Positions 12,490 to 57,594 of a stretch of 59,540 bases of DNA are shown one piece after another. Origin of the DNA: a virus (lineage: Duplodnaviria > Caudoviricetes); the IMG/VR virus record IMGVR_UViG_3300044974_000308, positions 1 through 59,540 of that record, one strand, 5' to 3'. A program made the position numbers and the translations under genes. The first letter of the stretch is position 1. Each line of letters opens with the position of its first letter. Below the pieces are notes generated by a model, which was given only the letters and a program-made list of their open reading frames with translations, did not search any database and was not told where the DNA came from.

Positions 12490-15400
12490 TCATCGCGAAT
12501 ATTTTGATACTACACCAAGCGCGTCTTTAATGACAGAGCCGCCATCGGCATATGCCTTTGGTTCTTCACCGCCAGCGGCCAAGGATTCTTCCATCATTTC
12601 CTTCGGGACATTGATGGAGACCGGGACGCCTCTCACGCCAGACGGCAATGCGCGACGACCAAGCCAAGTGCTCGCCGAATAGAAATCAGTCGGCCATTTC
12701 TTTGATCCATACTTTTCGTAATTGTTAAAGTCATAGACGTCGTTCACAACAGCGTTGCCGGCTTTGTCCAACTTGTAATTGGCGCGGCCAATGACGACCG
12801 GGAACGGGCCGCCTTTGTAGTCTTCATATTGAAGATTGTTTCTTCCTTCAGCCTGACTTTGCACAATAGCGCGGGCCAAGCTTTGCAGATCTTCTTTGCT
12901 AAAGTCTTTTTCTGTGAACGGCTCTTGGCGTCGGTCAAGCACGGCTTCTTTGTAGATCCTTGCCGGCGTGCCTTCATCAAAATAAGACGCAGCGCGAGCG
13001 GCTTTATCAAGCGCCCATGTGACAGCCTTTTCCATATTAGGGCTGTCCATCTTTGGATTTACGCTCGAATATTCCTTGCCGCCGACCGTAAAGGACGGGA
13101 AGACATCGCCCTCATCGCTTACCTTCCCGCCCTGCTCGAATGCCGGCAATCCCTTGAGGATAGCCGCGCGCAGCTTTGGCGTCATCTCAAGAGAATGAAG
13201 ATGGTGAATTCGATCCTCTCCATCGTCAGTTTCTGTCCCAAGATTAATCATGTGATCAAACAACTTCATTTTTATTGATGGGTCTAATTGCGCGACAAGT
13301 TTATTCATGCGCTCTGGCAGCTTCCTATCGTAATAATTGCGCATGCCTTTATTCTCTATTTTTAGATCGCCGCCACGCAATAAATGAACCTGCTTATTCC
13401 CCACGGTTTTTATCGGCTGAGAAAGCAATTTATCCGCAAGATCCTTGCCTATAAAACCGGGCAGAGCCTCTGCATGAACCTTTTCTTCAATATCTTCCAG
13501 CCCCTCAAGACCTTCAGCTAAAAGTTCTTTTGTATCTGGAGACCAGCGAATTGATTCAAATTTTTTATCCAACCCGTAACGATCTGACTGATCTTTCCCG
13601 GCCGTAAAAAGGATTTTTTTATAATCGCCTTTCGCCGCCTCTTGAAGAATGCGTTTCAACGCAAGATCAGTCCATCCTTCTGTGCTTCCGATATGCGGGC
13701 CTTCAGGGACTTCTTCTCCATCACGCTTGTTTTGGCCCCAATCGCTCTGAACTTCTTCGACATGAAGATACGGCTTTTGGAAAGCGAACCCTCTGTCAGA
13801 CATGCGAATATGGGCGAGGACATTTGGCGTTCCCTCCCAATGGCTTGACTGATAATTATTGGCGCGAAAATCAGATTTTACTTTTTTTAGCTGTTCTTCG
13901 GCATCATTTTTTTCTCGCCTGATATCTGAAACACGGCGATATGCCGCCAACGTATCTGGATGACCCGGCTCATTTTCCTCACTAATTCTCTTCCAATCAG
14001 CCATTGCATCTGCGCTTTGGCGAGAAAGCGTATTAAACCGTTCTTTAATCTTATCAAGATCATCAGAACTCTTACTTGGCAAATGCAAAAGCAATTCGCG
14101 ATAATTACCTACTGTGAAATCATCGCGAGGATCACTTAATTGATACTCTCCATACTTTGCATCATTAGAGCCTTTTGAACGGTATTGCGCCATATAAGGG
14201 CGAGCCTGCGCATTTAGAGCGTCAGACTCCTCAAGTTTGCCCTGCATTTTTAGCGCATAGGCTTTGTCCATAAGTTCTTTGCCAACAGCATACGGATCTC
14301 TGAGAACTTTCTCCTGAACCTGTGGCAGGTTCGTCTGTAGGTGCCGCGCAACTTCCTGCGGATCCACGCTCTTCTGCCCAGCAAAAGCGTCTCTAACGCC
14401 TGACCAATCAAGTTCCTCCGCTTTGACATTCGGAGATCCTCTCAGCTTGTTCAGGATCTGATCAATCGGCGCCTTCTGAGGTATTTTAGCTGCCGCCTCA
14501 GAAGCGGCGCTGTAAAAACCCATTGGCGTCGTTTCGCGGTCGTCGTCGACGGCGCCGCCTTCAGCATAGCCCATGCCGCCGAAGCCGCCGCCGAAGCCGC
14601 CAAGACCGCCAAAGAACGACCCAAGGCCCATGCCGAACATCGGCCCCCAGACGTCATAGAAGCCGCCGGTCGGATAGTTCGAAGGCTGGCCCATCGGCAT
14701 TGGCTGCTGCGGCGAAGGCGATGGATAGCCGCCGCCAAAGCCTTGCACATAATTCGGCAAGCGCGGGATAGACCCTTGCTGTGCAGCCGGCAGAACCGGC
14801 GGCCGCAGAAGACCAGTCGGCGTCTGCTGGGCTCGGGGATAGGGAGAGGCGTCTGGATAGCCCGGCACGCTTATCTCATCAGGCTGGCCCTGAACATTTA
14901 TTTCATTCTGGCCCTGCGGAACGTTGCTGGTCGTAAAGCGCGACCGCGAGCCTTTGAAGCCCGGCGTGAAGCCCTTGAAGTTTCCGCCCATGCCACCGCC
15001 GTAATACTTGCCGGGGCGATGATCGATTACCGGAACCGACGAGACGCCAAGTTCTTCAGCAGCCGTTGCACGATGACGACCATCTTCTGTTCCATTACGA
15101 TAAAGTTTAAGCGGGCCAAGAGGATCGCCAGATACAATATCACGTTTGAAATTATCAATAACCTGACGATCACCTTTTCCGATCTTGAGAGGCCGCGCTT
15201 CGTCAAGAAACTTCTCCGGCTTCATTTTCTTAATCTTGGCGGCTTTCGCGTCTTCTGTCATCGCAAGCGGATAATCGACGCGGCCGCCTTCCTTGCGCAT
15301 ATGGATGTTTGGATACTTCCACTGCCCGGCAAAGCTAGGCGTATTGCTGCGCGACACAATCGGCGCGGCGGCGAACGCCCATTCAATCAGACGGCGCCCG

Positions 15401-16431
15401 AATTGCTCAGGCTCTTCCTTGTCAAGCGCTGGGCCGGGGATTGAGCCGCCGTAAGCGCGCTGCATGCGGCCCTCAACCTCATGCGGAGCATGCATGAAAA
15501 AAGCTTTGATTCCGACTTCATTTTTGACGTCACCGCCATCAGCATATCGCCGCACTGTCTTTATGTGCTTAGGATCGAACACGACATAATTATGCGTCCC
15601 GTATTTATTCCCGCGAGTTCCTGAATCATTATATTTTATTCCGCGAATACCTGCAGACGCTAAAACATTACTTGCTTTTGCTTGAGCCTCACCTTTAGGA
15701 ACACCGCGCTTGAACATATCAGCTGAAAATTCGCTTTCTGAGAGACGCCGATAAAATTTATCCGCCATCATCCTTGATGCTTTTTCAGTCCACCCTAATG
15801 GCCTAAATAACCCAACGGCAGACGGCCCAAAATTGTTTTCAAAGTTCACAAGCCCGGCTTTGTGAAGGGCGTCGATAACTTCTGGATGCTGATCCTCAAG
15901 CGGCGCATCCCAATCCAATAAATGTTCTGCCCCGGCATTTATGCGAACTTCATACATATGGCCCGGGTTTTTTTGTATAACCCCGCCTTCTGGGAACAAA
16001 AGTTTTTTCAAGTCTTCGGCAACGCCGTCATATCTTGGATCTTTTGGGCTATAAGAATCCAATAACTTCTTTGCCGTCTCGATCCCTTCTTTCAAGCCGC
16101 CAGATTGGATTGCTTTTGAAATATTTACATTGCTAATATCGCGATATGGATCAAATGATTTTCCATCTATGGCATATGTTCCTTGAGATAAATTATCACG
16201 ATACTGTTTTGCCACATCTTCATTTTCAGCAAAATACAACCCGTGGCCGAACGCCTGCGCGCCTTCTCCTGTGCCGATAAATGCAGGATCAAATTCATCA
16301 AACTTATGAGGTGAGCCGTGATAGGCAGTCACGCCCATCGCCGGCCGGATATCTTCGTGCGTTTCAACGCCAGTTGCCGGCTCGACGCCCGTCGCGGGCA
16401 CTATGTCGTCATGCGTATCGACGGGCATCAT
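12490..16431 (-). CDS. Large polyvalent virion protein (ART-like + ParB-like + two uncharacterised domains)
   Basis: AYHGSPH.FD.F...GTGEG.Q.FG.GLYFAE...NYVVFD (ART-like); DGRHR..AA..LG...VPV (ParB/Srx-like); FYS...VEEVQSDW domain; separated by xxxGG motifs. Confidence 0.75.
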   Translation of the reverse strand: MMPVDTHDDIVPATGVEPATGVETHEDIRPAMGVTAYHGSPHKFDEFDPAFIGTGEGAQAFGHGLYFAENEDVAKQYRDNLSQGTYAIDGKSFDPYRDISNVNISKAIQSGGLKEGIETAKKLLDSYSPKDPRYDGVAEDLKKLLFPEGGVIQKNPGHMYEVRINAGAEHLLDWDAPLEDQHPEVIDALHKAGLVNFENNFGPSAVGLFRPLGWTEKASRMMADKFYRRLSESEFSADMFKRGVPKGEAQAKASNVLASAGIRGIKYNDSGTRGNKYGTHNYVVFDPKHIKTVRRYADGGDVKNEVGIKAFFMHAPHEVEGRMQRAYGGSIPGPALDKEEPEQFGRRLIEWAFAAAPIVSRSNTPSFAGQWKYPNIHMRKEGGRVDYPLAMTEDAKAAKIKKMKPEKFLDEARPLKIGKGDRQVIDNFKRDIVSGDPLGPLKLYRNGTEDGRHRATAAEELGVSSVPVIDHRPGKYYGGGMGGNFKGFTPGFKGSRSRFTTSNVPQGQNEINVQGQPDEISVPGYPDASPYPRAQQTPTGLLRPPVLPAAQQGSIPRLPNYVQGFGGGYPSPSPQQPMPMGQPSNYPTGGFYDVWGPMFGMGLGSFFGGLGGFGGGFGGMGYAEGGAVDDDRETTPMGFYSAASEAAAKIPQKAPIDQILNKLRGSPNVKAEELDWSGVRDAFAGQKSVDPQEVARHLQTNLPQVQEKVLRDPYAVGKELMDKAYALKMQGKLEESDALNAQARPYMAQYRSKGSNDAKYGEYQLSDPRDDFTVGNYRELLLHLPSKSSDDLDKIKERFNTLSRQSADAMADWKRISEENEPGHPDTLAAYRRVSDIRREKNDAEEQLKKVKSDFRANNYQSSHWEGTPNVLAHIRMSDRGFAFQKPYLHVEEVQSDWGQNKRDGEEVPEGPHIGSTEGWTDLALKRILQEAAKGDYKKILFTAGKDQSDRYGLDKKFESIRWSPDTKELLAEGLEGLEDIEEKVHAEALPGFIGKDLADKLLSQPIKTVGNKQVHLLRGGDLKIENKGMRNYYDRKLPERMNKLVAQLDPSIKMKLFDHMINLGTETDDGEDRIHHLHSLEMTPKLRAAILKGLPAFEQGGKVSDEGDVFPSFTVGGKEYSSVNPKMDSPNMEKAVTWALDKAARAASYFDEGTPARIYKEAVLDRRQEPFTEKDFSKEDLQSLARAIVQSQAEGRNNLQYEDYKGGPFPVVIGRANYKLDKAGNAVVNDVYDFNNYEKYGSKKWPTDFYSASTWLGRRALPSGVRGVPVSINVPKEMMEESLAAGGEEPKAYADGGSVIKDALGVVSKYSR

Positions 16432-16643: not shown

Positions 16644-18095
16644 TCATTTCCCCTTCTTGCCTTGTGGCTTGATATTTACGCGGAAGTTAGTCGGGATTTG
16701 ATTCCCTTCTTCGTCGCGCTCAAAAGTGCCTTTTTCAGTCTTTTTGAATTGCGGGTCATACTTCACAAAAAAGCCCTTAGACTCTTTATGCGCCGTGTCG
16801 TTCTTGCTTGAGACGTTCTTGTTCTTCAAGCCGACAATAACGCCTTCGTCGGGATTTTCGATGCTGTCCAACGGGCGGAAGTCATGTGTGTCGCCGGGGA
16901 TGACGCGATAGGTCTTACCTGTCTCTTCATCATGAACCTCTTTTGGAACGACGCTTTTGTGGCTAAACGCCATAGCGACGTTGTTGCCTTGATCAAGGCG
17001 CCGGCGCATTTCTTCCCAATTGCTATGCGGGTTATCAACGTCTTCCTGCGACACGCCAGTCGATGAATAAGTGTAATGATGATTTGGCGCGACTGGATCA
17101 TATTTCATCTTCGTATAGTCGTAGAAATCCACTTCAGGATGATTCTTGATGATCGGCTCAAGGATCTGCGGGCTGAGATCCGACAGGACGTTTAGGCGGA
17201 TACCAAGCTTATTGCCATTGTATTCGGCTTCGCGTTTGGCGCTCTGGATCTCGTCAAACAAGCGCACAGCAAAAGCTTCCGGCTCCTGCAGCATCGCAAT
17301 CGTTTTGTTCAGAGAGTTAAGCCTCGGGCCTTTAAAGGCGTCGAGATCTTTGCCGCCGCCAATCTTAAAGTAATTGCCAGACGTCTTACCAAGGCACTCG
17401 TCCTTGCAAGATGCATGATTTGGGCAGGTCTGAAAGTTGCCCATCTTGAACGCTGGCGCCAATGCAAGGCCAGTCGTTTCAACGCCCATGCCATCGACTT
17501 CAAGCGGTTTGCCGCCCTTGTAGCCGGATTCAGCCTTCATCATCTTCTCGTTCTTGCCAAGAAGAGGAACGGGGCCATCTTTGCGCACGCCAATATATGG
17601 CGCCAACTTTTGGATAGCAGCCTTCGTATTGGCTACACGTTCCTTATAAGGAAGATTAACGTGTTCATCGATTGCCTTATTAAAAGCATCGACTAGCGTC
17701 TGAACGCGCGGCATCTTTGCTTCTTCCTCAGACTTATCAGCCCAAGGAGCGCCTTCCGGCACGTTATACATTGATCCAAGCGTGCGCTTCGGTTGCAGAC
17801 CAACGCTACCCTCTGCGCCCGGCGCAGGGATGCGCGGCGTCGGCGCCGGGATAGGCGCATCGCCTTGCACTTCGCTTGCTGTCGATAGTGCTTGGCTTAC
17901 AGGATCCGGATCTCCGCCATCAGCCATCACTTGCCGACCGACATGCGGCATATAGTGCGTCGGATAATCGTCTTCCAAAAGACGGCCGCCCTTCGCCATG
18001 CCGGGCTTCACTTCCAGCGTCGGCGGAAGTTCGGAGGTCTGCGTCTTGAGATGATCGCCAATGATGTCGAGAGCGCGGTCAATGATCCTAGACAT
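16644..18095 (-). CDS. GP88-domain protein with N-terminal GG-motif extension
   Basis: CP..SC...CL, RLNVLSD, FYDYTK, TYS, NVA.AF, GD.HD.R.LD, VGLK.K motifs; MAKGG and MADGG in the N-terminus. Confidence 0.75.
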   Translation of the reverse strand: MSRIIDRALDIIGDHLKTQTSELPPTLEVKPGMAKGGRLLEDDYPTHYMPHVGRQVMADGGDPDPVSQALSTASEVQGDAPIPAPTPRIPAPGAEGSVGLQPKRTLGSMYNVPEGAPWADKSEEEAKMPRVQTLVDAFNKAIDEHVNLPYKERVANTKAAIQKLAPYIGVRKDGPVPLLGKNEKMMKAESGYKGGKPLEVDGMGVETTGLALAPAFKMGNFQTCPNHASCKDECLGKTSGNYFKIGGGKDLDAFKGPRLNSLNKTIAMLQEPEAFAVRLFDEIQSAKREAEYNGNKLGIRLNVLSDLSPQILEPIIKNHPEVDFYDYTKMKYDPVAPNHHYTYSSTGVSQEDVDNPHSNWEEMRRRLDQGNNVAMAFSHKSVVPKEVHDEETGKTYRVIPGDTHDFRPLDSIENPDEGVIVGLKNKNVSSKNDTAHKESKGFFVKYDPQFKKTEKGTFERDEEGNQIPTNFRVNIKPQGKKGK

Positions 18096-29319: not shown

Positions 29320-29354
29320 ATCTTTATTGAAATTGATAACCGATGGAGACTGAT

Positions 29355-29636: not shown

Positions 29637-29640
29637 TAAC

Positions 29641-29673: not shown

Positions 29674-29682
29674 GGAGGCGTA

Positions 29683-29784
29683 ATGACGTTCATGCGTTTT
29701 CTTGTGTCGCTCGTGTCGTTCCTTGGATCCATCGTGATCTTTGGATTGACCGTGTTCTTCGCTGTCTTGATGTTTATGAGGTGA
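29683..29784 (+). CDS. 33-aa hydrophobic membrane peptide
   Basis: Manual ORF MTFMRFLVSLVSFLGSIVIFGLTVFFAVLMFMR; RBS GGAGG. Confidence 0.5.
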   Translation: MTFMRFLVSLVSFLGSIVIFGLTVFFAVLMFMR

Positions 29785-43487: not shown

Positions 43488-45308
43488 TCAAATGTTTTCG
43501 TTGGCGACTGCAAGCGCCTTTGCGACTGCTTCGTCAGGCTGTTCAAGAAGCGGCTTTGTTTCTTCCTGAGATATCTTATGCGCACGCATTAGCTGCGCAA
43601 GAAGCTTCTGCGCTGTCATGCCGACGCGGCCGCCGCTGGCTCGCTGCGTGCGGTCTTCTTCAGGCATAAAGGAAACATTGCCTTCGATTGGCTGCTGAAG
43701 CTTCGTCTGTCCTGCGACAGCGCCCGGAGTAGATAGTTCCGGCATAGACGGCATTGGCTCACGCAATGAAGTAGGAGCCATGCTTTCAAGCCACTGCCCC
43801 GGAAGCTTGAATGGCCGTTCAAGACGACCCATGCCATATGCAGTCTTGGCCGCGATTGACGGAACAGTCATCGCCAGCGCCGGAAGCGCCTTGACGCCAA
43901 CGCCGGCCATCAGGCCGCCGGCGAGCGTCTGGGTCAACCGCGGCGAATGCGCCTGCGCCAGTTCCTGCCCGGCGATATGGGCGCCAATATCAGGGTTGCG
44001 TGCCTCTAACTCATCAAGAAGTTCTTTCTTGTATGGATTTTTCTGAGCGCGAAGCAAAGCACGAAGATCGCGACCTGTCGTCTGTCCCTGACTGCGCGCA
44101 ATCAGTTCTTTTTCAAATTCGCGAATGTCTTTGCTGGCGTTCGCGTATTCGTCCATGATGTCTGCGTAACGCGGATCTTTCGACGCAATAGTCTGCTTGG
44201 CCGCATTTCTCGCGTTCGAAATGATGTCTTTTGACGCCGGATCGACGTATTTGTCGCCGATCCGATCAAGCGCCTTCTTCAGATCATCAAATCCTTCCAT
44301 CGTCTGATAGTAGGGATTTTCGGCTGCAGCGCGCTTAAACTCATTGACCTTCTGAGTCGCTTCCAAAATCGCTGCAGCAGCGTTCGGGTCGACTTCAATG
44401 CCTTCCGGGCCAGAATAGGCACGACGGCGCGCGTCAAGAAGCGCGTTCTCTACCGCATTGAACGGCAGAATATCGTTTCTGGCGTTGATGTCGGCCATGC
44501 CGGAAAGATAGTTTTCGCTTCTTTCCTTGACGACGTCGTTGATCGTATTGCGGACGTTCTTGACGACCTGCTCAGGCGTTACGGCGCCAGAAGCCGATTC
44601 CCAGAAAGCCGGATTGAGCGTATGGCCGGATTGACGAGCCGCCTGCAGGGTCTCTGAAGAAAGACCGGAAGCGGTATGAAGGCCGCCCATAATCGTCGCC
44701 GGCACAACGCCAGCGACAGTCTTCGCCGCTTTGAGCGGGGCGGTGAAAGGCGCAAGTGTCGCAGACTGAACAGCGCGGCCAGCTGCTCCGGCCATGCCCG
44801 GCAAGCGGCCGGCGCCAGTCGCCACGCCGCCGATGTCGGCAAGCACGCCAACAGGGTCTTCAGCAAAAGCCTTTTTGAAGCCTTCGGTCGAGCCGTATTT
44901 GTCTTTGTAGTGCGAGATCACGGCATTGATGACGGCTTCGTCGCTTGCCTTCTTGGCTGGCTCTTCTTCATAGCCCAAAGCGCCAAGCGCTTTAGACGCT
45001 GCGCCATACCCAAGCTGCCCAAGATTGACGGCCGTCTGGGGGATATTCTCAGGATAAAACGGCTCAATCATCGACTTTGCAGTCGTGACTGCGCTCTCCG
45101 GGAAAGCCTTGAGCGCACGGCCGGCTACTTCGCCATAGCCCATCGTCTTGTATTGGTCTTTCGGATATCCCGATTCTTCAAACTTGTAATCGAAAAGCGG
45201 ATTGCTCGACGCCGGAGCACGCTCAGGCTCTCGCCTTGCAGGCTCACGGCGCGCGGGCTTTTCCTCTGCCGTCTCTTCGAATGAATAGTCGAGAAGAGGA
45301 TTAGCCAT
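43488..45308 (-). CDS. Ejection (DNA transfer) protein
   Basis: Helical and A/G-rich; DPVG.LAD, FD.LK motifs; C-terminal RASGGRV; position after the large ejection gene. Confidence 0.65.
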   Translation of the reverse strand: MANPLLDYSFEETAEEKPARREPARREPERAPASSNPLFDYKFEESGYPKDQYKTMGYGEVAGRALKAFPESAVTTAKSMIEPFYPENIPQTAVNLGQLGYGAASKALGALGYEEEPAKKASDEAVINAVISHYKDKYGSTEGFKKAFAEDPVGVLADIGGVATGAGRLPGMAGAAGRAVQSATLAPFTAPLKAAKTVAGVVPATIMGGLHTASGLSSETLQAARQSGHTLNPAFWESASGAVTPEQVVKNVRNTINDVVKERSENYLSGMADINARNDILPFNAVENALLDARRRAYSGPEGIEVDPNAAAAILEATQKVNEFKRAAAENPYYQTMEGFDDLKKALDRIGDKYVDPASKDIISNARNAAKQTIASKDPRYADIMDEYANASKDIREFEKELIARSQGQTTGRDLRALLRAQKNPYKKELLDELEARNPDIGAHIAGQELAQAHSPRLTQTLAGGLMAGVGVKALPALAMTVPSIAAKTAYGMGRLERPFKLPGQWLESMAPTSLREPMPSMPELSTPGAVAGQTKLQQPIEGNVSFMPEEDRTQRASGGRVGMTAQKLLAQLMRAHKISQEETKPLLEQPDEAVAKALAVANENI

Positions 45309-48300
45309 TATCGGGCTCCCAAGAAGTAACGGCTCATGTGCCGCTCTTTCGGGATATTATACCTTTGCTCAAAGTATTCGTCGATCTGTTCAGGGCTAAC
45401 CTTGCGCTGTTTCATCATCTCAAAGACGACGGATCCGGGCGCAACGCGCTTTTCTTTGTCGCCTCTATCAAGCAGCATGCTCTTAATCGCATTCTGCTCT
45501 TCGGCATATTTCGCAGAGTCGTTTTTGCCCTCAAAGTCTGACATTGCGCCAGAATAAATACCGCGGCTGATTTTGCCCCATTCATCAGCATGACGTTTGC
45601 GGTCAATCGCCTTCTGATTGGTAATCATGTTTGAGGCCGCCACTTGAGCGGCTGCCCCCGGCTCTTTAGACAGATTGGGGAGCGCTTCCATGTTGGCGAT
45701 AAGCGCGCCGACGGCTTTCTGATCGGCGCCCTTCGCTGCGGCCTGCGCCTGCAGCGTGGTCAATTTGGTCATGACGTCATTATATTCTTTGGCGTTGCCA
45801 AAGAAGTTCTCGCCAGCGTCGAGACCGGGGATAGCGCGAACAGCGCGATTTAGAGCGCCAATCACGTCAGACGTAAATTCATAACCGGGGCCGGGAGCCG
45901 CGAGCAGTTTGCCGCTTGAAGCCTTTGCTACGATATCCGCCATCTCATTGTAGAAGATCTTCTGCTGATTGGCGGACATGGCGTCACGATTGGCGCCTTC
46001 GATATATTCGCGAGACGCCGTGCGGATGACGGGCTGGTCGGCGCTTCTCTGAAGATTGCGCGTTTCTGCCGCAGCAGCCTTCGCGGAGCCTTCGTCGAAA
46101 TTAACGCCGGGGATAGCCGCAGCCTTCGGCGCCGGAGCCGGCGCAGGAGGAACTGCGGTCGTCTTTACAGGCGGCAATTTCGGAACGTCTGCGGCGCCGG
46201 GAGCGCCTGCAGGGGCTGCGGGGCCGCCTCCTACAGGCGTCCCTGCCGGGCCGGGGGCTTGACGCGCTGCGGGAGTAACAGCGGAGCCCGTGGTCGACAA
46301 GCCGCGGTGAATCTGGCGCGCAAGTTCCGCGGCCGCGCTGCCGCCGGCGAGCGGCTCGCCGCTCTCCATCCATTCGTAAAGCGGCTTCATGCTGCCATCC
46401 GACAGCTGGACGAACCAGTTCGGATTTTCGGCGCTGCCAAAGTTCTTGAAGCCAAGATCGCGGGCTTCCTGCAGGACGCGGAACGTCTCTGCCGGCACCT
46501 TCTCCGCTTCTTCGCGGGTAAGCATACCCTGCGAGCGCAGCAGTTCCTGTTCGGCGCGCAGCTTCTCCTGTTCTTCCAGCGTCGTGCCCATATCCAGATA
46601 GCCCTTGGCGCCAGCGCCAACGCCTTGCAGGATAGCGGAGCCAAGGAAGCGGCTGGGGGATGACGCCATAGCGCCAAGGCCCATCAGCGCCGGGATAACC
46701 AGACGCTCAGGACGCTCGGAGATCTCTTCCGTAAAGCTGCGGTCTTTGGGCGCAACAGACGAGCGGCTTAGAACTTCGCGCGCCGGGCCGACGCCTTCAG
46801 ACGAAGCGCGGAAAGACCGCGCGCCGGCCGGAAGCTTGGACAGGTCGAAGTCGCCGCCGCCCATGACGCCAGCAACATATTTCTGCGTCTCTTGCGGCAG
46901 GTAGTTCAGATAGTCGCGGCCGGTCGCTTCGGAACGCGCAAGCGCACGACGGACAGCGCCGGGGCCGGCATTATACGCAGCTGCGGCGAGATCGGTTCTG
47001 CCAAAGTCGGAAAGCTGCTTATTGTAATAGGCTTTGCCAAGCGCTTCGTTGTAATCAGGATCGCGACGATATTTCACCGGGTCATATTCAACGCCAGCAA
47101 GCTTGGCGGCTTCGGGAGCCGTGCCGGGCATAACCTGCGCAATGCCTGCGGCGCCCTTCGGCGATGTTAGCGTCTCACCGCTTTTATCAAATTGATGACC
47201 GCCGGATTCGCGATGGATCATGCGGCGCCAAGTCTTGTCGGCGTCACTCTCTTCCTCCGGCTTAACTCCGCCATCGGCGTAGCCCAGACCCTGCTTCAGG
47301 CGACGGTCGGAGAACATCGCCATGACAGCCGGAATAGCAGTTGCCGCGCTGGAAGCCATCGACGCGATGTCTTTGCCCATGCCGACGATCTCAGACAGCT
47401 TGCTGCGACCGGAGCCGCCGCCAGAGGCGTCGTCATCGTCTTTGGGCTTTTCAAGTTCAGCCGGCTTCTGCGCCTTCAGGACGTCAGAAGGGAAGTATTC
47501 AGGAGCGCCGCCATCGGCATATCCAAGAAGGCCCTTCAGGCTCGAAAGCGCGCCGGGCTTGTCCTTCGTGCCAGACAGCCAGTCTTTGGCCGCGCCGATA
47601 TCTTTGCCGTAACCAACAAGTTCCTTGCCGGTCGACATGATCTGGCCTAAGCCAGTCTGCTCAGGCGGCCGCGCCACGGGAGGCGGAGAGCTAGGCGTCA
47701 TCAGACGGCCCGGCTGGATAGCGGTCGACGGGACATAGCCTTTCGCGCCGCCGCCGGGCATAGCGCCGGCTTCCTGCCCATAGAGGCCCGGCATAGCGCC
47801 GCCAAGGCCGCCATACATCTTCCTGTGCGCTTCGGCCAAGGCGGACATTTCGCCGCTTGTCAGGCCGCCATCGGCATAGCCGCCGGCAGAATAGCCGCCG
47901 CGCCAATAATCCTTGCCCGGCTCCATATCAATGACTGCGCCGCCCATGCGGGCGTTTTCAGTCGCGCGGTCATAATCGACGACGTCATAGCCGGTCTGCG
48001 GGTCGCGAGCGACAGCGTCAGGCCGCACTTCGTCAGACATAAGGCCAATCTGCGCAGGGCCAGTCTGGCCTGTGCGAGGATCCGTAAGGCGGTAGCTGTA
48101 GACGCCCTCGCCGCTATCCAGATGGCCTACCCGCTCAGGCTCGCCGCCGCGTGCATATGCCTGCCCCAGACCCTGCTTGAGACGCGGATCGGAGAAGAAG
48201 GGCTGATATTGCGGCTGCTGCCAATTGTATTGGGTCGATCCAAAAAGTGGCCCGGCGCCAGTGACGGCGCCAGTATAGAACTGCGACGTCTGGAACGGAT

Positions 48301-49018
48301 ATGCGCGCTCTTGCAGGAACTGGTTATAGAGCGCCTGAAGGCCGGCTTGCTGCGTCTGCTGCTCGACAGTGCCAGCGCCCATAAGCGCCTGCGCCGCCTG
48401 CAGGCCAGCCTGCTGGGCGCCAGCGCCCAACGTGCCGAATTGGCCGCCGGCCTGAAGCTGGCGCGCGAGATCCGTCTGGGCCGCCTGCATCGCCGGCGCA
48501 TAGCCGGCCTGCATGATGTCGCCCATCGTCTTGCCGGTAGCGAGATCCTGCTGGCCGCGAAGAAGCTGGCGTTGAAGACCGGCGCGCTCACCGCCGAAGG
48601 CGCCGCCCTTGATGGCCTCCGCCTGCTGCTGGGCGCGCTGCTGGCCCTGCTGCTGGCCCAGAAGAGCCATCGTAGGGAGAGCGACCGAACTGGTGTAAGG
48701 CGAAATATATTTGCCGACGATCTCAGGCGCCGACGTCGTGCCGGCCAGTCCCGTCAGGCCCGCTGCGGCGCCATAGAAAGGCTGCGCCGCCTGCTGTTGC
48801 TGCATGATGTTCTGGGTAGCAAGCCGCTGCGTTCCCGTGAGGGGCGCGACAAAAGCTTCCGGGCTTTCTGAATAGCGCTGGAAGGGCGTCTGCGAGACCT
48901 GCTCTGCGCGACCTATCGCCTTTTGATAAGCGGCGCGAACTTCCGGCGGAATCTGGGTCGATTGCACCGACTGCGGCATGAAGGGATTAATAGGAGCGGT
49001 TGAAGTTTTGCTACCCAT
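45308..49018 (-). CDS. Large ejection protein with S74-like domain and lytic transglycosylase
   Basis: Q/A/G-rich pilot-like N-terminus (Y.SPY, GAFGG.R); SD.RLK...IGLM..EV.P.AV...VDY; ES.G...S.KGA.G.AQ.MP.TA...AAYNAGPG...ET..YV. Confidence 0.8.
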   Translation of the reverse strand: MGSKTSTAPINPFMPQSVQSTQIPPEVRAAYQKAIGRAEQVSQTPFQRYSESPEAFVAPLTGTQRLATQNIMQQQQAAQPFYGAAAGLTGLAGTTSAPEIVGKYISPYTSSVALPTMALLGQQQGQQRAQQQAEAIKGGAFGGERAGLQRQLLRGQQDLATGKTMGDIMQAGYAPAMQAAQTDLARQLQAGGQFGTLGAGAQQAGLQAAQALMGAGTVEQQTQQAGLQALYNQFLQERAYPFQTSQFYTGAVTGAGPLFGSTQYNWQQPQYQPFFSDPRLKQGLGQAYARGGEPERVGHLDSGEGVYSYRLTDPRTGQTGPAQIGLMSDEVRPDAVARDPQTGYDVVDYDRATENARMGGAVIDMEPGKDYWRGGYSAGGYADGGLTSGEMSALAEAHRKMYGGLGGAMPGLYGQEAGAMPGGGAKGYVPSTAIQPGRLMTPSSPPPVARPPEQTGLGQIMSTGKELVGYGKDIGAAKDWLSGTKDKPGALSSLKGLLGYADGGAPEYFPSDVLKAQKPAELEKPKDDDDASGGGSGRSKLSEIVGMGKDIASMASSAATAIPAVMAMFSDRRLKQGLGYADGGVKPEEESDADKTWRRMIHRESGGHQFDKSGETLTSPKGAAGIAQVMPGTAPEAAKLAGVEYDPVKYRRDPDYNEALGKAYYNKQLSDFGRTDLAAAAYNAGPGAVRRALARSEATGRDYLNYLPQETQKYVAGVMGGGDFDLSKLPAGARSFRASSEGVGPAREVLSRSSVAPKDRSFTEEISERPERLVIPALMGLGAMASSPSRFLGSAILQGVGAGAKGYLDMGTTLEEQEKLRAEQELLRSQGMLTREEAEKVPAETFRVLQEARDLGFKNFGSAENPNWFVQLSDGSMKPLYEWMESGEPLAGGSAAAELARQIHRGLSTTGSAVTPAARQAPGPAGTPVGGGPAAPAGAPGAADVPKLPPVKTTAVPPAPAPAPKAAAIPGVNFDEGSAKAAAAETRNLQRSADQPVIRTASREYIEGANRDAMSANQQKIFYNEMADIVAKASSGKLLAAPGPGYEFTSDVIGALNRAVRAIPGLDAGENFFGNAKEYNDVMTKLTTLQAQAAAKGADQKAVGALIANMEALPNLSKEPGAAAQVAASNMITNQKAIDRKRHADEWGKISRGIYSGAMSDFEGKNDSAKYAEEQNAIKSMLLDRGDKEKRVAPGSVVFEMMKQRKVSPEQIDEYFEQRYNIPKERHMSRYFLGAR

Positions 49019-49053: not shown

Positions 49054-49548
49054 TTATTCTGCCGCCTCTTGATGCCACTCGCCGGTCTTGCCGCCGTAGA
49101 GGAAATACGCCCCGGCCGGTTGACCAAAGAGCCGCTCATACATCTTTACCTTACTTCTCGTTCGGGTGTTAGAGACAACGCCGATGACAAGAGGTATTCC
49201 AAGTTCATCCGAAACTTTTTTTCCAAATTCGCAAAGCTTACGAGCCCTTCCTCCCTTGGCGCTGCGAAATTCCGGGTGAACAAAGACGCATTTTTCTTCT
49301 ATTATTGGATCATCACTATACCACAAGGTTCCGATTCTGAGCAAAACCAAGCCTTCTAGTTGCTGACCCGGCTCGCCGATCAGGCCCATGACGCCAAAGT
49401 CCTGCGTCAATCCAGCCCAAACGTCGGCCAAAAGCTTTTCTGTGTTGGGGACAGATATCCCGTTTTCGCGGCATGCCAGAACGGCAAGTTCCATTACGGC
49501 GTGGATATCATCTTTTGTCCCTATCCTAACTTTTACCTCTTCACTCAT
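49054..49548 (-). CDS. GNAT-family acetyltransferase-like virion-module protein
   Basis: FVHPEFRS..GGRA.KL motif A; K...YER.FG. Confidence 0.7.
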   Translation of the reverse strand: MSEEVKVRIGTKDDIHAVMELAVLACRENGISVPNTEKLLADVWAGLTQDFGVMGLIGEPGQQLEGLVLLRIGTLWYSDDPIIEEKCVFVHPEFRSAKGGRARKLCEFGKKVSDELGIPLVIGVVSNTRTRSKVKMYERLFGQPAGAYFLYGGKTGEWHQEAAE

Positions 49549-49561
49549 CGCAAGTCCCTTC

Positions 49562-50080
49562 CTAATCCTTGCGTGGCCCCGGTAACGCTTTCAGTGTATT
49601 GATCAGCTGCGCTCTCGCCAGCTTCACAAACTTGTCCATCTCGTTATGCGCGAGATCCATATCCCCAAATATATCCTGCAGAGATTCAGGCGTGACAATA
49701 TATTCGCCGCCAGCCGCGACGATTTCAGTCGCTTCCCCGCCGCCATAGACCTGCCGGCCAAAGACTTTGTTTAGCGCCCGGAAGCCAGCCATCGTGTTGC
49801 CCTCTCCAAGAGAGGAAACAATATCAGCCGGAATAACATAGCAGCCAGAAGGAACGTGGATAGGTAAATGATCAGTCCTGCCAGACACATTGCTATGGAT
49901 TGGGCCAACGTGAGCTTTGTCCTTCTCAGGCGCGTCAGGAAGATCGCCGCCTTCTGCGCGCGAACGTCGAGCTGTTGATAGAGCAGCCGCTACGGCCTGA
50001 TCCTGCGGACGGCCAGCGTGGATCATCTCAGAAATATTCGATGAGATCGTTTTCTGTGATTTTCCCATTTTGAGCGGCAT
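49562..50080 (-). CDS. Small GG-motif protein with 'D.LP....G.YV.PA..V..LG' domain (candidate maturation peptidase)
   Basis: MPL..GKS..IS.NI.E...QAVA.ALS.AR leader; RAEGG; two GxY(V/I) units. Confidence 0.6.
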   Translation of the reverse strand: MPLKMGKSQKTISSNISEMIHAGRPQDQAVAAALSTARRSRAEGGDLPDAPEKDKAHVGPIHSNVSGRTDHLPIHVPSGCYVIPADIVSSLGEGNTMAGFRALNKVFGRQVYGGGEATEIVAAGGEYIVTPESLQDIFGDMDLAHNEMDKFVKLARAQLINTLKALPGPRKD

Positions 50081-50687: not shown

Positions 50688-51188
50688 CTATGAAAATCTA
50701 GCATGGTCGCCAAAATATTGGCGAGCAGCAATCACATATGCATTATGAGCATCAGACGGGCTACTAAATTTAGTCCCGAGCGATTTACTCTTTCCATTTA
50801 TCTTTATATAGGCTCCCCACTTACCTGTGGATTTTACAAACGAAACACCCTTTAACCCAGAGGTATTGGTTGATGGAGTTTTTTTATTTGCGGCATTCAA
50901 TGATGTATTGGATATTCGTAAATTAGATATCCTATTATTTAATGGATCTCCATCAATATGATCGATGATGCCATCAGGCCAATTATTGTGATGCAATAGC
51001 CACGCGATACGATGCGCGCCATAATAACGACGCTCCATCATTATTTTCCGATATCCATTTGTATCTATCGTCCCAGCGATGGTGCCCGCAGAAATGCCTT
51101 GGCGTGAAATAGACCAGCGGATTTCACCAGTATCTGGGTCATATTGCAGCCGTTCAACGGCAATTTTTGCGATATGATGGTCTTCCAT
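50688..51188 (-). CDS. HNH homing endonuclease with AP2-like domain
   Basis: AHRIAW...IDHIDG..LNNR.SNLR; NTSG.KGV...W.A.I; AT-rich. Confidence 0.9.
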   Translation of the reverse strand: MEDHHIAKIAVERLQYDPDTGEIRWSISRQGISAGTIAGTIDTNGYRKIMMERRYYGAHRIAWLLHHNNWPDGIIDHIDGDPLNNRISNLRISNTSLNAANKKTPSTNTSGLKGVSFVKSTGKWGAYIKINGKSKSLGTKFSSPSDAHNAYVIAARQYFGDHARFS

Positions 51189-53488
51189 CAGAATTTACCG
51201 TCTCTTTGAATGCGATATCGTGTGGCGCCAATACGCCAGAACGACCCGATGTCGCTGCTTTGCATCTTTATCGACATCAGCCTACCACGGAATCGCGGCG
51301 TGACATATTGCGTCTGATAATTGATATTGAACGGCCCATACGCAATTGGCGTATCAGTCGGATAATCGGCGACATAGAATGTAAGCTGTAAATCGGCGTC
51401 CTGTGTTCCGCCGAAATAACCCCACTTCATGTCAGGCCATACCTGATCGACGAATACTTTGTATTCGCCGTCATCCATAGAGAAATAGCCAGTTTGGAAG
51501 CTGGAAACCATTGCTTGCCCATCGGCATCTGTCGACGTTTCATGCTGATAGATGAAATTCTCGACGTCTGCCGGGATCATCGGGCCGGCGCCAATTGGCG
51601 GCCCAAGAACTGACTGATTTATCCAAGCCGTGCGCGTTAAGGTGCCAAAGTCCCACTGGTTAAGCGCAACATTGTATTTCACATACATTGTCGGCTCGCC
51701 GTTGCCGCTTAGGGTAGGGAAATACCACGCAATTTCACCAAATCGCGAGTTCGCTGCAATGCGAATATTGTCGAGATTAGATTCGTCTAATTCCTGAAAG
51801 ATAACATCCCATATTGGGCATGTAATCATTTCAACGCCGGATCCAGAAAGGCGGTAAAATTGGCTCTGGCCCATCCAATAAACAACGCCGTTCATTGAAG
51901 TTGCGGCTTTTCTGGAGATTAATCCGCAACCATTGCCGATTTCGTTGAACTGATAGACATAGGGAGGGCCGACATATTGCATGGCCCAAATGCCAAGATC
52001 CGTCCAAACCAGACCCTGCTGCGGCCCCTGAATGCAGCCGACAATGCGGGAGCCTTTTGGCAGGCGATAAGAGCCGGCCTGATTGGTGATTGATGCCGCC
52101 CATTGATCGTAATCATTGACGTCGCACCAGCGAATCAAAAGCTGATCCTGAATGCCGTTGAAGGTCGACCCCCATGCGATAATCTGACGCTGCGGCATGG
52201 CGACAAACATGCCATCGTTGACTTCAGGGCCATTAGAGATAATGCCCGACTGAACGGCGCCCGTCGTCGGATCCCAAGTAAATATCGGGCCTCCGACGGG
52301 ACAGGAAACGAGAACCTGACCCCAATTGTCCAGCGTCCAATCTGTGCATTGAATTGGATTGCCTTCGTTCAAGGTCGAAGGAACAACGCCTGTGCCGTAG
52401 CCGCCATCGCCATATGGGTTGATGGCGTAACCAATAGCGGCCGGAAGGTTGCCGGGCAGCTTGTAGAAAAGATATCTGGCATTACCGCTGTTCATAAAAG
52501 CAGCAGTAGTTGAAGTCGCTTCGTTGGCCGCGTTGATCTTGAACTGATTATTCGAGACAAGATCCGTTACGGTGTAATTGCCATAGATTGTCACACCGCC
52601 AAGAGACGTCGATACGACAGCGGTATAGGTATCGCCAATGACGTAGCCGTGGTCGTTAAGCGTGACCGTAACAACAGACTGATTGATCGTGACTGAATAA
52701 TAAGGAACGGCGCCGCCATTCGTGACCGTAGACGTCGCGAGAATATCGTTGCCGCTAACATCTCTGGCGATAACCTGAAAGTTATCGGTTCCATCGACGA
52801 AGATACATTCATACAGCCCAAATAGAACAAGGCCGCCGACGCTAATCGGGGTCTCAATATACACGGTGTCGTAGCTATCAATGTTTGAGCCAATAGCCGT
52901 TAGGGTTACAAACGGGCTACCCAGCTGCGTATCTGCAAGAACGCCAACATTGGAAAGCTGCGACCGCGGCGTGATAATTGCGCGAGAAGCGCCTTCAATG
53001 ACCGAAAGGCCATCGCCGGCGTAAATCGTTCCGGGGGCGCTATTTCCAATGACGCCCGAACTAGAGGTCGTAAAGGTTATTTGCCCCGGAGAAGATGTAG
53101 TAACAGTAAATGTTCCATTGAGCGCGCTATTGCTCAGACCAGTCGTAACAATCGTATCGCCGACAGCATAGCTATTTGAGCCGCTATAAACGATTGTGAC
53201 CGTAGACCCAGATCTCGTCGCAGACGTTATCGACGATGAACGCGACTGCGCTCCAAGCGCAAGATAGTCGACGTTATTCGTATCCTGCCATGCCCAAAGA
53301 GCGCGGACAATTGAACCGACATTGGACGAGAAATACCGCGTCCAGCCGCCCAGCTTCTGAACCAGACCTAGACCCTGCTTGTCAGGGACAAATCGCACAA
53401 GTTGAGAGTAAGAAATCGCCGCTTCGTTAAGAGCGATTGTCCTATTTTCATCAACGCCGGGAAGGAGTTTAAGCGTCGAATGCGGCAT
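51188..53488 (-). CDS. Tail nozzle/tubular protein B-like (DNA stabilisation) protein
   Basis: QKLGGW, W.LDNWG, IRW.D..D...W, N.AG..RL, VYWMG, E..W.FP, R.RGR beta-propeller motifs. Confidence 0.8.
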   Translation of the reverse strand: MPHSTLKLLPGVDENRTIALNEAAISYSQLVRFVPDKQGLGLVQKLGGWTRYFSSNVGSIVRALWAWQDTNNVDYLALGAQSRSSSITSATRSGSTVTIVYSGSNSYAVGDTIVTTGLSNSALNGTFTVTTSSPGQITFTTSSSGVIGNSAPGTIYAGDGLSVIEGASRAIITPRSQLSNVGVLADTQLGSPFVTLTAIGSNIDSYDTVYIETPISVGGLVLFGLYECIFVDGTDNFQVIARDVSGNDILATSTVTNGGAVPYYSVTINQSVVTVTLNDHGYVIGDTYTAVVSTSLGGVTIYGNYTVTDLVSNNQFKINAANEATSTTAAFMNSGNARYLFYKLPGNLPAAIGYAINPYGDGGYGTGVVPSTLNEGNPIQCTDWTLDNWGQVLVSCPVGGPIFTWDPTTGAVQSGIISNGPEVNDGMFVAMPQRQIIAWGSTFNGIQDQLLIRWCDVNDYDQWAASITNQAGSYRLPKGSRIVGCIQGPQQGLVWTDLGIWAMQYVGPPYVYQFNEIGNGCGLISRKAATSMNGVVYWMGQSQFYRLSGSGVEMITCPIWDVIFQELDESNLDNIRIAANSRFGEIAWYFPTLSGNGEPTMYVKYNVALNQWDFGTLTRTAWINQSVLGPPIGAGPMIPADVENFIYQHETSTDADGQAMVSSFQTGYFSMDDGEYKVFVDQVWPDMKWGYFGGTQDADLQLTFYVADYPTDTPIAYGPFNINYQTQYVTPRFRGRLMSIKMQSSDIGSFWRIGATRYRIQRDGKF

Positions 53489-53491: not shown

Positions 53492-54268
53492 TTACCCTCT
53501 CGACGGCGTCGCTGTGGCGGAAGCAGACTGTGATGTCCAGCCTGCAGCTTCGAACTTCTTGCGATTTTCTTCGGACATAGCGCCGCGCAGAAGCGTCTGA
53601 TACTGCGTTTCATATGTGACGGGCATTTGCGGGTCATTACCAGCAGCGCTGGAGAAGTTGCGCTGATAGGCGGCGATATAGATCATGCTCGCCATAATAA
53701 AGAGATCTGGCAAATACAAGCTAATAAACGTCGTCTTATTGCTCAACGACATGCTAACCGGACGGAACGTGCCGACGATCTCGACCGTATAAGTCGCGTC
53801 AGAATAGGGGCCGACAAGGAAGGTATAGTCGTCGAAGACGGCAAAATATTTTGGCTGGCTTACGCTGGAAGAGGCGCCAAATACCGCATCCAGAAATTCC
53901 TTTGTGACGGGCATCAAAGGGACGCGAATGGCGTTATCCGGGTTTGTGGATCCGGCCGGCGTAAGCAAATTGATCTGCTCAGGAACGACAAGAACGCCGC
54001 CGCCGTATGGGGCGCCGGCGGCAAAATTCGTCCCCGCAGGGACGGTTATTGATCTTGTCCCTACAGGAAGGGAGAAACTGGTGTTTGATACGGATGTGAA
54101 GACAAAGTCGAGATCGCGATAGATCCGATTTTCGGCATAGGTGATCATCTGAGGAAGAATGTTCAGAAAATCACTATTTGTCGGCTCGACAACGGCCATT
54201 GTGGAGATCTGGGTGATATAGCTGGTCGTCCCAGAAATAGATCCGTCGTAGCTTAGGCCCGTAGTCAT
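53492..54268 (-). CDS. Head-tail adaptor/tubular protein A-like
   Basis: I..AE.RI.RDL...P.Y.A...GP..D..Y.VE...PDL...AS. Confidence 0.7.
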   Translation of the reverse strand: MTTGLSYDGSISGTTSYITQISTMAVVEPTNSDFLNILPQMITYAENRIYRDLDFVFTSVSNTSFSLPVGTRSITVPAGTNFAAGAPYGGGVLVVPEQINLLTPAGSTNPDNAIRVPLMPVTKEFLDAVFGASSSVSQPKYFAVFDDYTFLVGPYSDATYTVEIVGTFRPVSMSLSNKTTFISLYLPDLFIMASMIYIAAYQRNFSSAAGNDPQMPVTYETQYQTLLRGAMSEENRKKFEAAGWTSQSASATATPSRG

Positions 54269-56911: not shown

Positions 56912-57594
56912 CGGAAATAGCCAGACAACTGCGGTGACAAATAAGTATTGGCCGTTTCGATATTCTGAGCCGCGGCAATATCGTAAGACTCATCCGCCAT
57001 TGGCTTCATGATCGCCGCTTTCTCCGGCGCCCAGATCTGCGAAAGCCGGAAGGCCAAGCCATAGACCATCGCCTCAAGCCATATCGGCGGCATGTCCATT
57101 TCCTGCGCGCCGCTTAGATTGGCGTCCTGAATGCGGGAGACATAGGCATACGTCAGGGAGACCTGCGAGCCATCCGGGACAGGCCAAAGCGTAAAGGTCG
57201 GCGTCAGAGTGCGGTCGAACCAGAACGTCGTCGGGAAGCCCTGCTGGGCTTTGTTCGGGTAAGACATATATTCTGTGCGGCTGATCGGAAGAATAATCCG
57301 GTCAATTGCGTTGGGCGCAGTGCCGGTCGTTACAAAGGCGTCCAACATAACGACGGCATTTGCCGGGACAGTGTAAGACGGCGTGCCCTGAACAAGCGGG
57401 ATCGTGACGAACTTAACTTCCCAAAGATTGACGCCCTGATTGCTCCATCGGGTGAACATCATGTTCGTCGCCATGCGGGCGGCGTCAAAATGCTCTTGAA
57501 CGAGACTGGTCGGGCGCAGACCTATCAACTGATAGGCGTAGAGGGTGACTTCACCTAAAGAGGGATTAAAATTATAAGTATTGCTAGTGCTCAT
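56908..57594 (-). CDS. Head-tail adaptor/tail tubular protein
   Basis: W.NQG.NLW, ISR.EY..PNK..G.P..W.DR, LWPVPD, GLA..L. Confidence 0.75.
   Translation of the reverse strand: MSTSNTYNFNPSLGEVTLYAYQLIGLRPTSLVQEHFDAARMATNMMFTRWSNQGVNLWEVKFVTIPLVQGTPSYTVPANAVVMLDAFVTTGTAPNAIDRIILPISRTEYMSYPNKAQQGFPTTFWFDRTLTPTFTLWPVPDGSQVSLTYAYVSRIQDANLSGAQEMDMPPIWLEAMVYGLAFRLSQIWAPEKAAIMKPMADESYDIAAAQNIETANTYLSPQLSGYFR

Follow-up and report, generated by a model that had tools for sequence, protein, structure and literature searches.

The locus examined here raises the question of what a small protein, built from a helical hairpin, a glycine junction and a repeated unit, could be doing among the virion genes of a phage. 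The window, that is, the whole stretch of DNA that was analysed, is the complete 59,540-bp virus record IMGVR_UViG_3300044974_000308 of IMG/VR, which has direct terminal repeats. On its minus strand, at 49562..50080, lies an open reading frame (ORF), here called the target, whose translation gives 172 amino acids and a stop codon. The initial annotation, made from the DNA letters and their translations, proposed that the product is a trans-acting maturation peptidase, or else a factor that binds the short Gly-Gly motifs ("glycine tags") seen in other proteins of the same phage. We favour a different reading, to which we assign a probability of about 0.55. The protein may represent, without any cargo, the minimal form in a very large and unannotated family of phage "carriers", and it would be an internal virion protein, ejected at infection, in which the end modules are constant address or docking pieces and the tags are flexible junctions.

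Three modules and a tandem duplication

The sequence quoted in the initial annotation (RAEGG, then GPIH... and a second unit) is identical to the translation of 49562-50080, which runs MPLKMGKSQK...RRSRAEGG, then GPIH...GRTDHLPIHVPSGCYVIPADIVSSLGEG, then EIVAAGGEYIVTPE. Translation truly begins at the ATG at 50080: among 65 aligned homologues M1 and P2 are conserved to at least 90%, and an N-terminus of the form MPLK.GKS is common to them. The protein consists of three modules. A helical hairpin at the N-terminus comes first and the glycine junction RAEGG second; the third is a C-terminal domain in which two homologous units follow each other, each a beta-hairpin and then two helices.

The hairpin (residues 1-45, 49946..50080, minus strand) is basic, with 7 K+R against 3 D+E, and has its helices at residues 9-21 and 26-39. 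AlphaFold models residues 1-40 with a predicted local distance difference test score (pLDDT) of 91-97, and residues 1-43 match positions 1-43 of the 52 positions of the phrog_2423 profile (E 1.5e-15). RAEGG itself (residues 41-45, 49946..49960, minus strand), where the cargo begins in longer relatives, precedes unit 1 and ends in two glycines, G44 and G45, that are at least 90% conserved; residues 44-47 have a pLDDT below 50 and are disordered in the model. Unit 1 (GRTDHLPIHVPSGCYVIPADIVSSLGEGNTMAG..., residues 66-109, 49754..49885, minus strand) and unit 2 (EATEIVAAGGEYIVTPESLQDIFGDMDLAHNEMDKFV..., residues 114-156, 49613..49741, minus strand) are recognised by their own hidden Markov models (HMMs) with domain E-values of 1.5e-28 and 3.8e-17, respectively. 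Over the full length, the HMMs of the three modules all match the target (hairpin 1.8e-27, unit 1 6.1e-30, unit 2 1.6e-18). The protein closes with a conserved tail, LPGPRKD (residues 166-172, 49565..49585, minus strand), in which L166, P167 and P169 show at least 90% conservation.

That the second unit is real, as had been supposed, is borne out by both profiles and structure prediction. When the profiles of residues 66-110 and 112-156 are aligned with hhalign, the probability is 96.4% (E 1.4e-9, 42 columns), and the unit-2 HMM also matches unit 1 (1.1e-4). The full-length AlphaFold model, built with 65 homologues, has a pLDDT of 88.8; residues 55-172 modelled alone with 138 sequences reach 94.5, with a predicted template modelling score (pTM) of 0.86, and show the order strand-strand-helix-helix twice. 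Because the profiles of the two halves align, the model repeats, and the HMM of one unit finds the other, we regard the C-terminal domain as a tandem duplication. Among the 65 sequences G59, G67, R68, D70, N95, G99, G125 and E126 are invariant, and the residues conserved to at least 90% include T69, D86, S89, H145, D149 and R156.

Neither Pfam nor NCBIfam holds a match to the whole protein. With the C-terminal domain or the single units as queries, Pfam was empty at E <= 10 and PHROGs returned at that threshold only families listed as unknown (E 0.2-0.43). In the PDB the best match of the single sequence was FtsZ (E 0.47). The profile search gave the 40S protein S3 (E 0.84) and the propeptide of Tk-subtilisin (E 1.1-1.4), both judged to be chance matches; the propeptide also clashes with the predicted strand-strand-helix-helix order. 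The structural comparison suggested as a check in the initial annotation gave the same picture: Foldseek of the full model and of the C-terminal domain found nothing in the PDB at E <= 0.001, with KH-domain rows at a TM-score of 0.2-0.3, and VIA-align of the C-terminal domain against 48,161 chains gave a best Z of 3.4 (root-mean-square deviation 3.2 Å over 68 residues), none reaching Z >= 5. In a wide VIA-align search with the full model only the N-terminal hairpin was matched, to generic helical hairpins (Z up to 5.7). Against the BFVD, Foldseek of the full model retrieved uncharacterised proteins of uncultured phages together with many phage proteins of 43-70 residues in which the hairpin makes up most of the chain. 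A look-up in the Atlas gave unnamed viral clusters only, and the nearest named entry, a crAss cargo protein (0.85), fell under the lead level. The absence of a structural neighbour is no proof of a new fold, but it leaves an enzymatic reading without the support of a known fold.

These searches bear directly on the maturation peptidase once proposed, and on the wider idea that the duplicated unit is a processing or self-processing module which would cut at or near x-A-x-G-G and so free the domains carried by its longer relatives. We think this unlikely. A set of conserved polar residues (S89, H145, D149, R68, D70, D86, N95 and E126) could form an active site, but no likeness to a peptidase or a solved structure was found in sequence or in fold: Pfam, NCBIfam and the sequences of the PDB gave no match, and no solved chain, peptidases included, matched the model. 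None of the cysteine and histidines that might have been candidates for catalysis (C80, H62, H71, H75) falls in a column conserved to at least 90%. A reading of H62-x7-D70-H71 as a LAS-type metallopeptidase motif was dropped as well, since H62, H71 and H75 are not conserved.

A large family with exchangeable cargo

The target belongs to a family of considerable size. A word-indexed search retrieved 1988 homologues of 94-301 amino acids, and among the 120 that were listed all are unnamed or called "hypothetical protein". Clustered at 50% identity, the family comprises 2694 clusters, as an exhaustive search of cluster representatives at E <= 0.001 showed. The best 150 representatives include many long proteins with the match at their C-terminal end. 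HMMs of the three modules (hairpin, unit 1, unit 2) were run over these best 150 of the 2694 and over long relatives. All 150 representatives contain unit 1, 145 contain unit 2 and 121 contain the hairpin, which starts no more than 5 residues from the N-terminal end in 116 of the 150; unit 2 ends no more than 25 residues from the C-terminal end in 144, and L[PK]xP followed by 1-4 residues forms the very end of the protein in 133.

A search limited to 453-2000 amino acids added 427 further relatives, of which 120 were listed and 106 of these scanned. All three modules were found in every one of the 106, in the order of the target, which also recurs in 116 of the 150 representatives. More than 60 residues are inserted between the hairpin and unit 1 in 95 of them, and between the two units in 13. 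Recognisable Pfam domains are part of this inserted material, here called cargo. They were found in 5 of 30 long representatives (ART-PolyVal, InPase, or NUDIX with DUF6098) and in 19 of the 120 listed long relatives (ART-PolyVal, GNAT, GP88, NUDIX, InPase, Methyltransf_23 and DUF7178), and for the 17 of those 19 with domain coordinates the cargo lies between the modules. GNAT is the cargo of the carriers P0395, P0466 and P0473, and GP88 that of P0429, P0442 and the carrier of the related locus L094 described below; no relatives of the GNAT-bearing carrier P0466 were found in viral contigs. At the other extreme of size, the small proteins of phrog_2423 match residues 1-43 of the target, and in the BFVD proteins of 43-70 residues from Ralstonia and Burkholderia phages match its hairpin only. 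These proteins differ from the target in being without the C-terminal units, and PHROGs gives their function as unknown.

The same slot in related loci

A pattern search of IMG/VR gave 600 matches, 558 of which encode relatives of the target; 80 loci were kept, and 43 of these are at least 12 kb long (L001 included). The gene directly after the target in the window (49054..49548, minus strand) encodes a GNAT-like acetyltransferase, matched by phrog_1249 (acetyltransferase, E 3.5e-6), with a Pfam GNAT match under the cutoff. A GNAT gene directly follows the target in all 43 loci, and a nozzle-like gene lies upstream of it in 42; the exception has less than 2 kb of upstream DNA.

Two loci show the slot occupied by carriers with cargo. 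L098 has the order adaptor, nozzle, a carrier of 1261 amino acids, GNAT and SLT protein, and the middle of its carrier resembles residues 633-903 of a 1313-residue protein that the window encodes elsewhere (12490..16431, minus strand). In L094 the adaptor and nozzle genes are followed by a hairpin and then a GP88 domain 50% identical to a 483-residue protein of the window (16644..18095, minus strand; PF17338 GP88, E 5.2e-18), whose gene lies beside the portal gene; the contig stops inside the carrier gene. As carriers with cargo occupy the same slot, the target corresponds to them in position but has no load. The 1313-residue protein carries an N-terminal ART-PolyVal domain (PF18760, residues 36-84 matched, E 4e-8, 34.6 bits with the cutoff at 31.2), and outside this domain it has no Pfam match. 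Thus, what is cargo elsewhere is related to proteins that are encoded separately here: the ART-PolyVal protein of 1313 residues, the GP88 protein of 483 residues and the adjacent GNAT.

Glycine tags at module boundaries

The glycine tags that drew attention to this phage are real. The strict pattern [FY]A[DE]GG occurs 7 times in 46 ORFs (14,626 amino acids), against 0.077 expected and a maximum of 1 in 1000 shuffles, and a broader tag pattern occurs 10 times against 0.71 expected. Six of the seven strict tags lie in two large virion-type proteins. The 1313-residue protein has three bare Y-A-[DE]-G-G tags at residues 296, 622 and 1294, one of them 15 residues from the end. The other is an internal-virion-type protein of 1236 residues with an SLT transglycosylase domain (45308..49018, minus strand; SLT E 7.5e-14), which has three GYADGG and one AYARGG, at residues 288, 381, 500 and 580. 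The GP88 protein contributes MAKGG and MADGG at residues 33 and 57, which satisfy the broader pattern only. We call the tags of the large proteins bare because the unit HMMs match no other ORF of the window; a six-frame scan of 430 ORFs of at least 60 amino acids found the units in the target only, and the module does stand alone, as had been proposed. Across 42 related loci there are 36 strict tags against 1.3 expected, with at least one in 24 loci and none in 18, these being partial genomes.

In the carriers the tags fall at module boundaries: they close the hairpin and stand ahead of cargo domains and of each unit. F/Y-A-x-G-G precedes unit 2 in most family members, and in the target this copy is degenerate (VYGGG). 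The tags look like junction motifs of the multi-domain virion proteins of this phage group. A functional tie between the module and the tag-bearing proteins of this phage is also supported at the level of sequence, by way of the domains of those proteins that serve as cargo in other phages.

Several other observations concern the tags or their carriers. A 167-residue ORF at 29229-29732 (minus strand), outside the structural block and without a family match, has one strict tag, LYADGGD, at residue 42. The stretch of the 1313-residue protein ahead of its first tag (VVFDPKHIKTVRRYADGG) aligns with the N-terminal end of the fragmentary representative P0256, ...NYVTFHHEPIEVEEKYARGG. A very basic protein of 393 residues (11263-12444, minus strand), which has no Pfam or PHROGs family, contains ten GG sites in basic contexts (such as LYNKGG, AFKKGG, NYKKGG and GRKKGGR) and, near its C-terminal end, two repeats of R-K-[AS]-G-G-R-I-[TS]-K-V-A-K-S-Y-K-D-M. 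As it is without the strict [FY]A[DE]GG pattern, its GG sites form a separate, basic class of tag. Finally, the 1236-residue protein contains FSD[PR]RLKQGLG twice (residues about 275-295 and 570-590), each time directly before a tag (AYARGG and GYADGG, respectively). We take this motif to be like the start of the S74 self-cleaving chaperone domains, a likeness that Pfam did not confirm: an S74-type element was rejected when no Peptidase_S74 was found by Pfam at E <= 10 in residues 260-380 and 555-640.

The tags lie at the heart of the main rival to our interpretation. It would keep everything said above about carriers and add that the empty form binds, in trans, the bare [FY]A[DE]GG junctions of the 1313-, 483- and 1236-residue proteins and recruits these to the particle or the ejection complex, doing in trans what fused carriers do in cis. 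A Rosetta-stone pattern speaks for such a tag reader or adaptor, in that GP88, ART-PolyVal and a segment like residues 633-903 are fused in carriers elsewhere and are separate, tagged proteins here. The units, moreover, are confined to the target while six of the seven strict tags are in the two large virion-type proteins, and every unit, whether in a carrier or in a tape measure protein, has a tag of its own ahead of it. AlphaFold, on the other hand, leaves even the tag in cis undocked (residues 44-47), and 18 of 42 related loci have the gene and no strict tag, with the reservation that the genomes are partial and the pattern strict. The initial annotation had held that its idea would fall if tagged phages lacked the gene, and such phages exist: lambda and Klebsiella phage Shelby have tagged tape measure proteins and no homologue of the target ORF at E <= 1, with the unit present in cis. 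On balance a reader in trans appears doubtful, and the carrier interpretation is retained.

Moderate resemblance to the C-terminal region of tape measure proteins

The initial annotation also likened the module of the target to one near the C-terminus of many tape measure proteins, such as lambda gpH. The motif is indeed present in gpH and in the tape measure proteins of siphophages. In lambda (NC_001416) gpH reads ...FHFATGG, 12 amino acids, IVHRGEFVFTKEATSRIGVGNL...GYATGGYVG, a tag-unit-tag arrangement of FHFATGG, 12 residues, IVHRGEFVFTKEATSRIGVGNLYRLMR and GYATGGYVG. A first search with this region of gpH, intended for a profile, returned near-identical E. coli prophage proteins only and was replaced by phage records. 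With tblastn the C-terminus of gpH matched 1047 phage records, many of which, in phages of Klebsiella, Escherichia and Pseudomonas, match only positions 46-86 of the query, at 75-90% identity. Eight tape measure proteins were fetched and seven used together with gpH; that of Ayreon (L090), which is without the unit, was left out. These proteins share F-[AS]-x-G-G-Y-T-G-x-G-x-K-x-x-P-x-G-h-V-H-x-G-E-[FV]-V...G-Y-A-x-G-G, and the conserved stretch with which the units were compared reads h-V-H-x-G-E-[FV]-V...G-x-x-N-L.

Unit 2 aligned to this set with an hhalign probability of 52.8% (E 1.4e-4, score 26.3, 23 columns). When the columns of the tape measure alignment were shuffled, the mean score was 9.9 (standard deviation 2.4, maximum 19.1), and none of 150 shuffles reached the real score; the stacked profile of both units scored 18.7, which again none of 150 shuffles reached. 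With the single gpH sequence the units scored 17.1 and 21.2, and shuffles reached up to 24.3 and 20.8, so that this comparison is not decisive. The likeness is moderate, at the profile level, for unit 2; for unit 1 it was not significant, and HMMER did not recover it in either direction. A PDB profile search that included full-length gpH chains gave no match to tape measure proteins, and Pfam finds no family at E <= 10 in gpH residues 687-853 (L002:3101-3601), which include the tag-unit-tag region.

The arrangement that the two appear to share, in gpH at about residues 733-790, consists of [FY]AxGG, a short linker and h-V-x-x-G-E-[FY]-V...G-x-G-[ND]. In both cases the module stands at the C-terminal end of a protein expected to leave the particle before the DNA, which for gpH is described in the part of PMC12617516 available and for the target follows from our own argument. 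The tape measure proteins differ in that a single unit, instead of two, terminates a chain of about 850 amino acids or more, and in having no N-terminal hairpin. A protein of Planktothrix phage Pag-Yong1, UMO76003.1 (L092:6302-7186), has a hydrophobic, Gly-rich N-terminal part, then NYAEGG and one unit (VHVADGEYVIPADVVSGIGNGS), and matches the unit 1 HMM at 2.4e-15 and the unit 2 HMM at 2.6e-12. Judged by its sequence, it is a single-unit intermediate with a layout like that of tape measure proteins. It is annotated as "extracellular solute-binding protein", and its counterparts in Synechococcus phage MinM2 and Planktothrix phage Pra-JY27 as "calcium-binding protein" and "hypothetical"; these annotations look wrong. 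The gene that follows in Pag-Yong1 is annotated as an S74-domain protein, and Pfam finds nothing there. A common origin of the C-terminal unit and the C-terminal region of tape measure proteins is probable, which would make the likeness homology rather than convergence.

The resemblance also reopens the matter of processing. In the available parts of the two lambda studies, the tail structures model gpH only at residues 818-849, so that the tag-unit stretch is not built (PMC10721106), and neither the site nor the catalyst of the cleavage of gpH to gpH* and gpHC is known (PMC12617516). The account in that part of PMC12617516 places the cut near the FATGG tag and the unit. A unit that cuts at such tags would explain the conversion of gpH to gpH* and gpHC, and the nearby cut counts in favour of it, as does the position of tags at the module boundaries of polyvalent proteins without a recognisable peptidase. 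The polar residues that might form an active site, however, are not common to unit 1, unit 2 and the unit of tape measure proteins, which share only glycines, an aromatic residue, a valine, one acidic residue and Gly-x-Gly-[ND]. Lambda and Shelby, tagged without a homologue of the gene, weaken the idea further, with the qualification that they have the unit in cis. A bolder version is equally improbable. It holds that the unit of about 42 residues and the x-A-x-G-G before it are an ancient processing or recognition element of tape measure proteins and podophage carriers, which recognises and possibly cuts glycine junctions, and that here it has become a free-standing factor which acts in trans upon three large virion proteins through their bare tags. 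If true, this would account both for the maturation of gpH and for the release of multi-enzyme phage proteins into single units.

Genomic setting

The genes around the target are all on the minus strand, and the order of transcription is adaptor, nozzle-like protein, HNH endonuclease, a 177-residue ORF, target, GNAT-like protein, the 1236-residue SLT protein, a 606-residue ORF and fibre genes. The adaptor (53492-54268, minus strand) is of the SU10 type (PF24175 SU10_adaptor, E 1.6e-14), and the nozzle-like virion protein of 766 residues (51188-53488, minus strand) matches phrog_3287, a virion structural protein family (E 3.9e-58). Flanked by adaptor, nozzle and SLT-protein genes, the target lies among virion structural genes. 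The order of these two genes is conserved in related loci. The one comparable public record, MW202675.1, has the same annotated order, and its counterpart of the 1236-residue protein is called "internal virion protein D". Elsewhere the genome encodes a terminase, a major head protein and an SU10-type portal; the genes of the portal and the GP88-family protein are followed by that of the 1313-residue ART-PolyVal protein. From this gene content the phage is a short-tailed phage, or podophage.

That it has no tape measure gene, as previously stated, agrees with our scan, in which none was seen in the window by PHROGs on the ORFs or among the other large ORFs; the one place where PHROGs does give a tape measure family is the transglycosylase part of the 1236-residue protein. 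Nor does the target have the context of a tape measure gene, being an ORF of 172 amino acids in a podophage gene order without tail tube genes.

An endonuclease gene interrupts the block at 50688-51188 (minus strand), between the nozzle gene and the 177-residue ORF. Its product matches HNH_3 (E 1.3e-14) and phrog_99 (E 7.5e-64). Of the 43 related loci that span at least 12 kb, L066 alone shows an HNH match in this place, and the gene has the appearance of a mobile homing endonuclease that has inserted here. A second homing endonuclease lies at 57584-58249 (phrog_314; GIY-YIG-type families also match).

Gene position is also the point from which a role outside the virion could be argued. The product might be a late assembly chaperone or an intracellular factor that helps, for example, to fold or assemble the large internal proteins, in the manner of the tail assembly chaperones that bind tape measure proteins. 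The protein is small, its gene is placed among tail genes, and its start codon lies 4 nt past the stop of the upstream 177-residue ORF, which suggests coupled late expression; that the product is packaged is, moreover, itself inferred. The longer members of the family, on the other hand, carry host-directed enzymes (ART-PolyVal, NUDIX, InPase), which fits delivery into the host better, and we give the chaperone little credence.

Discussion

The gene invariably falls within the tail and ejection-protein block of an SU10-like podophage, in the order adaptor, nozzle, small gene, target, GNAT, large transglycosylase protein. Taken as an internal virion protein, the target would be packaged with the internal, or ejection, proteins of the particle and would leave through the nozzle at infection. 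Its hairpin and C-terminal domain would be non-enzymatic address or docking pieces that place it in the internal core or the tail channel, and the glycine tags would act as hinges at module boundaries. The relatives hold effector domains (ADP-ribosyltransferase, acetyltransferase, GP88, NUDIX, pyrophosphatase, methyltransferase) as insertions, either after the hairpin and before the units or between one unit and the next, while this phage has the empty form of the carrier and encodes the enzymes separately. The C-terminal unit probably goes back to an old element that also occurs in the C-terminal region of the tape measure proteins of siphophages, and these too are expelled before the DNA.

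A number of observations weigh against this interpretation. The placement of family members in the virion is drawn from gene position alone, and the cargo-less form is without an obvious job of its own. Many polar residues are conserved (R68, T69, D70, D86, S89, N95, E126, H145, D149 and R156), more than docking seems to need. The link to tape measure proteins spans about 23 aligned columns; unit 1 alone, compared with the tape measure alignment, gives a probability of 3% and a score of 14.3, which 9 of 150 shuffles reach. A generic unit HMM recovers no tape measure protein at E <= 10 in a test set of 9656 ORFs, and the tape measure HMM, run with HMMER, does not recover the target. Lastly, only one full-length homologue was found among 50,697 phage records, and it comes from an uncultured phage.

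The closest known counterparts of the loaded carriers are the polyvalent proteins of phages and conjugative elements, which, in the portion of Iyer et al. 2017 consulted (PMC5512222), are predicted to be packaged and injected. Relatives of the target combine ART-PolyVal, InPase, NUDIX and GNAT in one polypeptide encoded among virion genes, and these are domain types described for polyvalent proteins in that portion of the paper. The target itself differs in having no effector domain, where two or more are required of a polyvalent protein and are found in its relatives, and in having no MuF, portal or metallopeptidase domain. As its hairpin and C-terminal units match no Pfam family, they are none of the LPD families that Pfam holds.

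Podophages have internal core or ejection proteins of their own, such as gp13-gp16 of T7. The target is like these in gene position, after the adaptor and nozzle and before a large transglycosylase protein, and differs in that it has no sequence or fold match to solved core proteins; its membership would follow from position only. Gly-Gly motifs are also familiar from the double-glycine leader peptidase systems. The tags of this phage likewise place Gly-Gly at boundaries that are possible cleavage sites, and they differ in being internal junctions instead of leaders; in the target, moreover, no peptidase domain or fold was detected.

Packaged multi-enzyme phage proteins are thus already known as a concept. 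What Pfam and NCBIfam do not contain is the hairpin with its two-unit handle, the empty form, the junction tags and the resemblance to tape measure proteins; PHROGs has the hairpin only, with function unknown. No description of the tag or the unit was found among the literature entries listed for motif strings or in the portion of PMC5512222 mentioned above, its supplementary list of 40 "LPD" domains not being covered.

Proteins that are injected with the DNA are the first weapons of a phage against the defences of its host, and how such proteins are addressed to the particle is known for few systems. Here, a very common and unannotated pair of end modules, present in at least 2694 clusters, brackets exchangeable enzymes at one fixed locus of widespread uncultured podophages. 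The empty form provides a clean start for testing the end modules, and perhaps also a natural chassis by which phage particles could be loaded with proteins. Finally, the resemblance to tape measure proteins adjoins the region of the unexplained gpH cleavage. It would link short- and long-tailed phages, and it makes an old question about lambda testable through one short motif.

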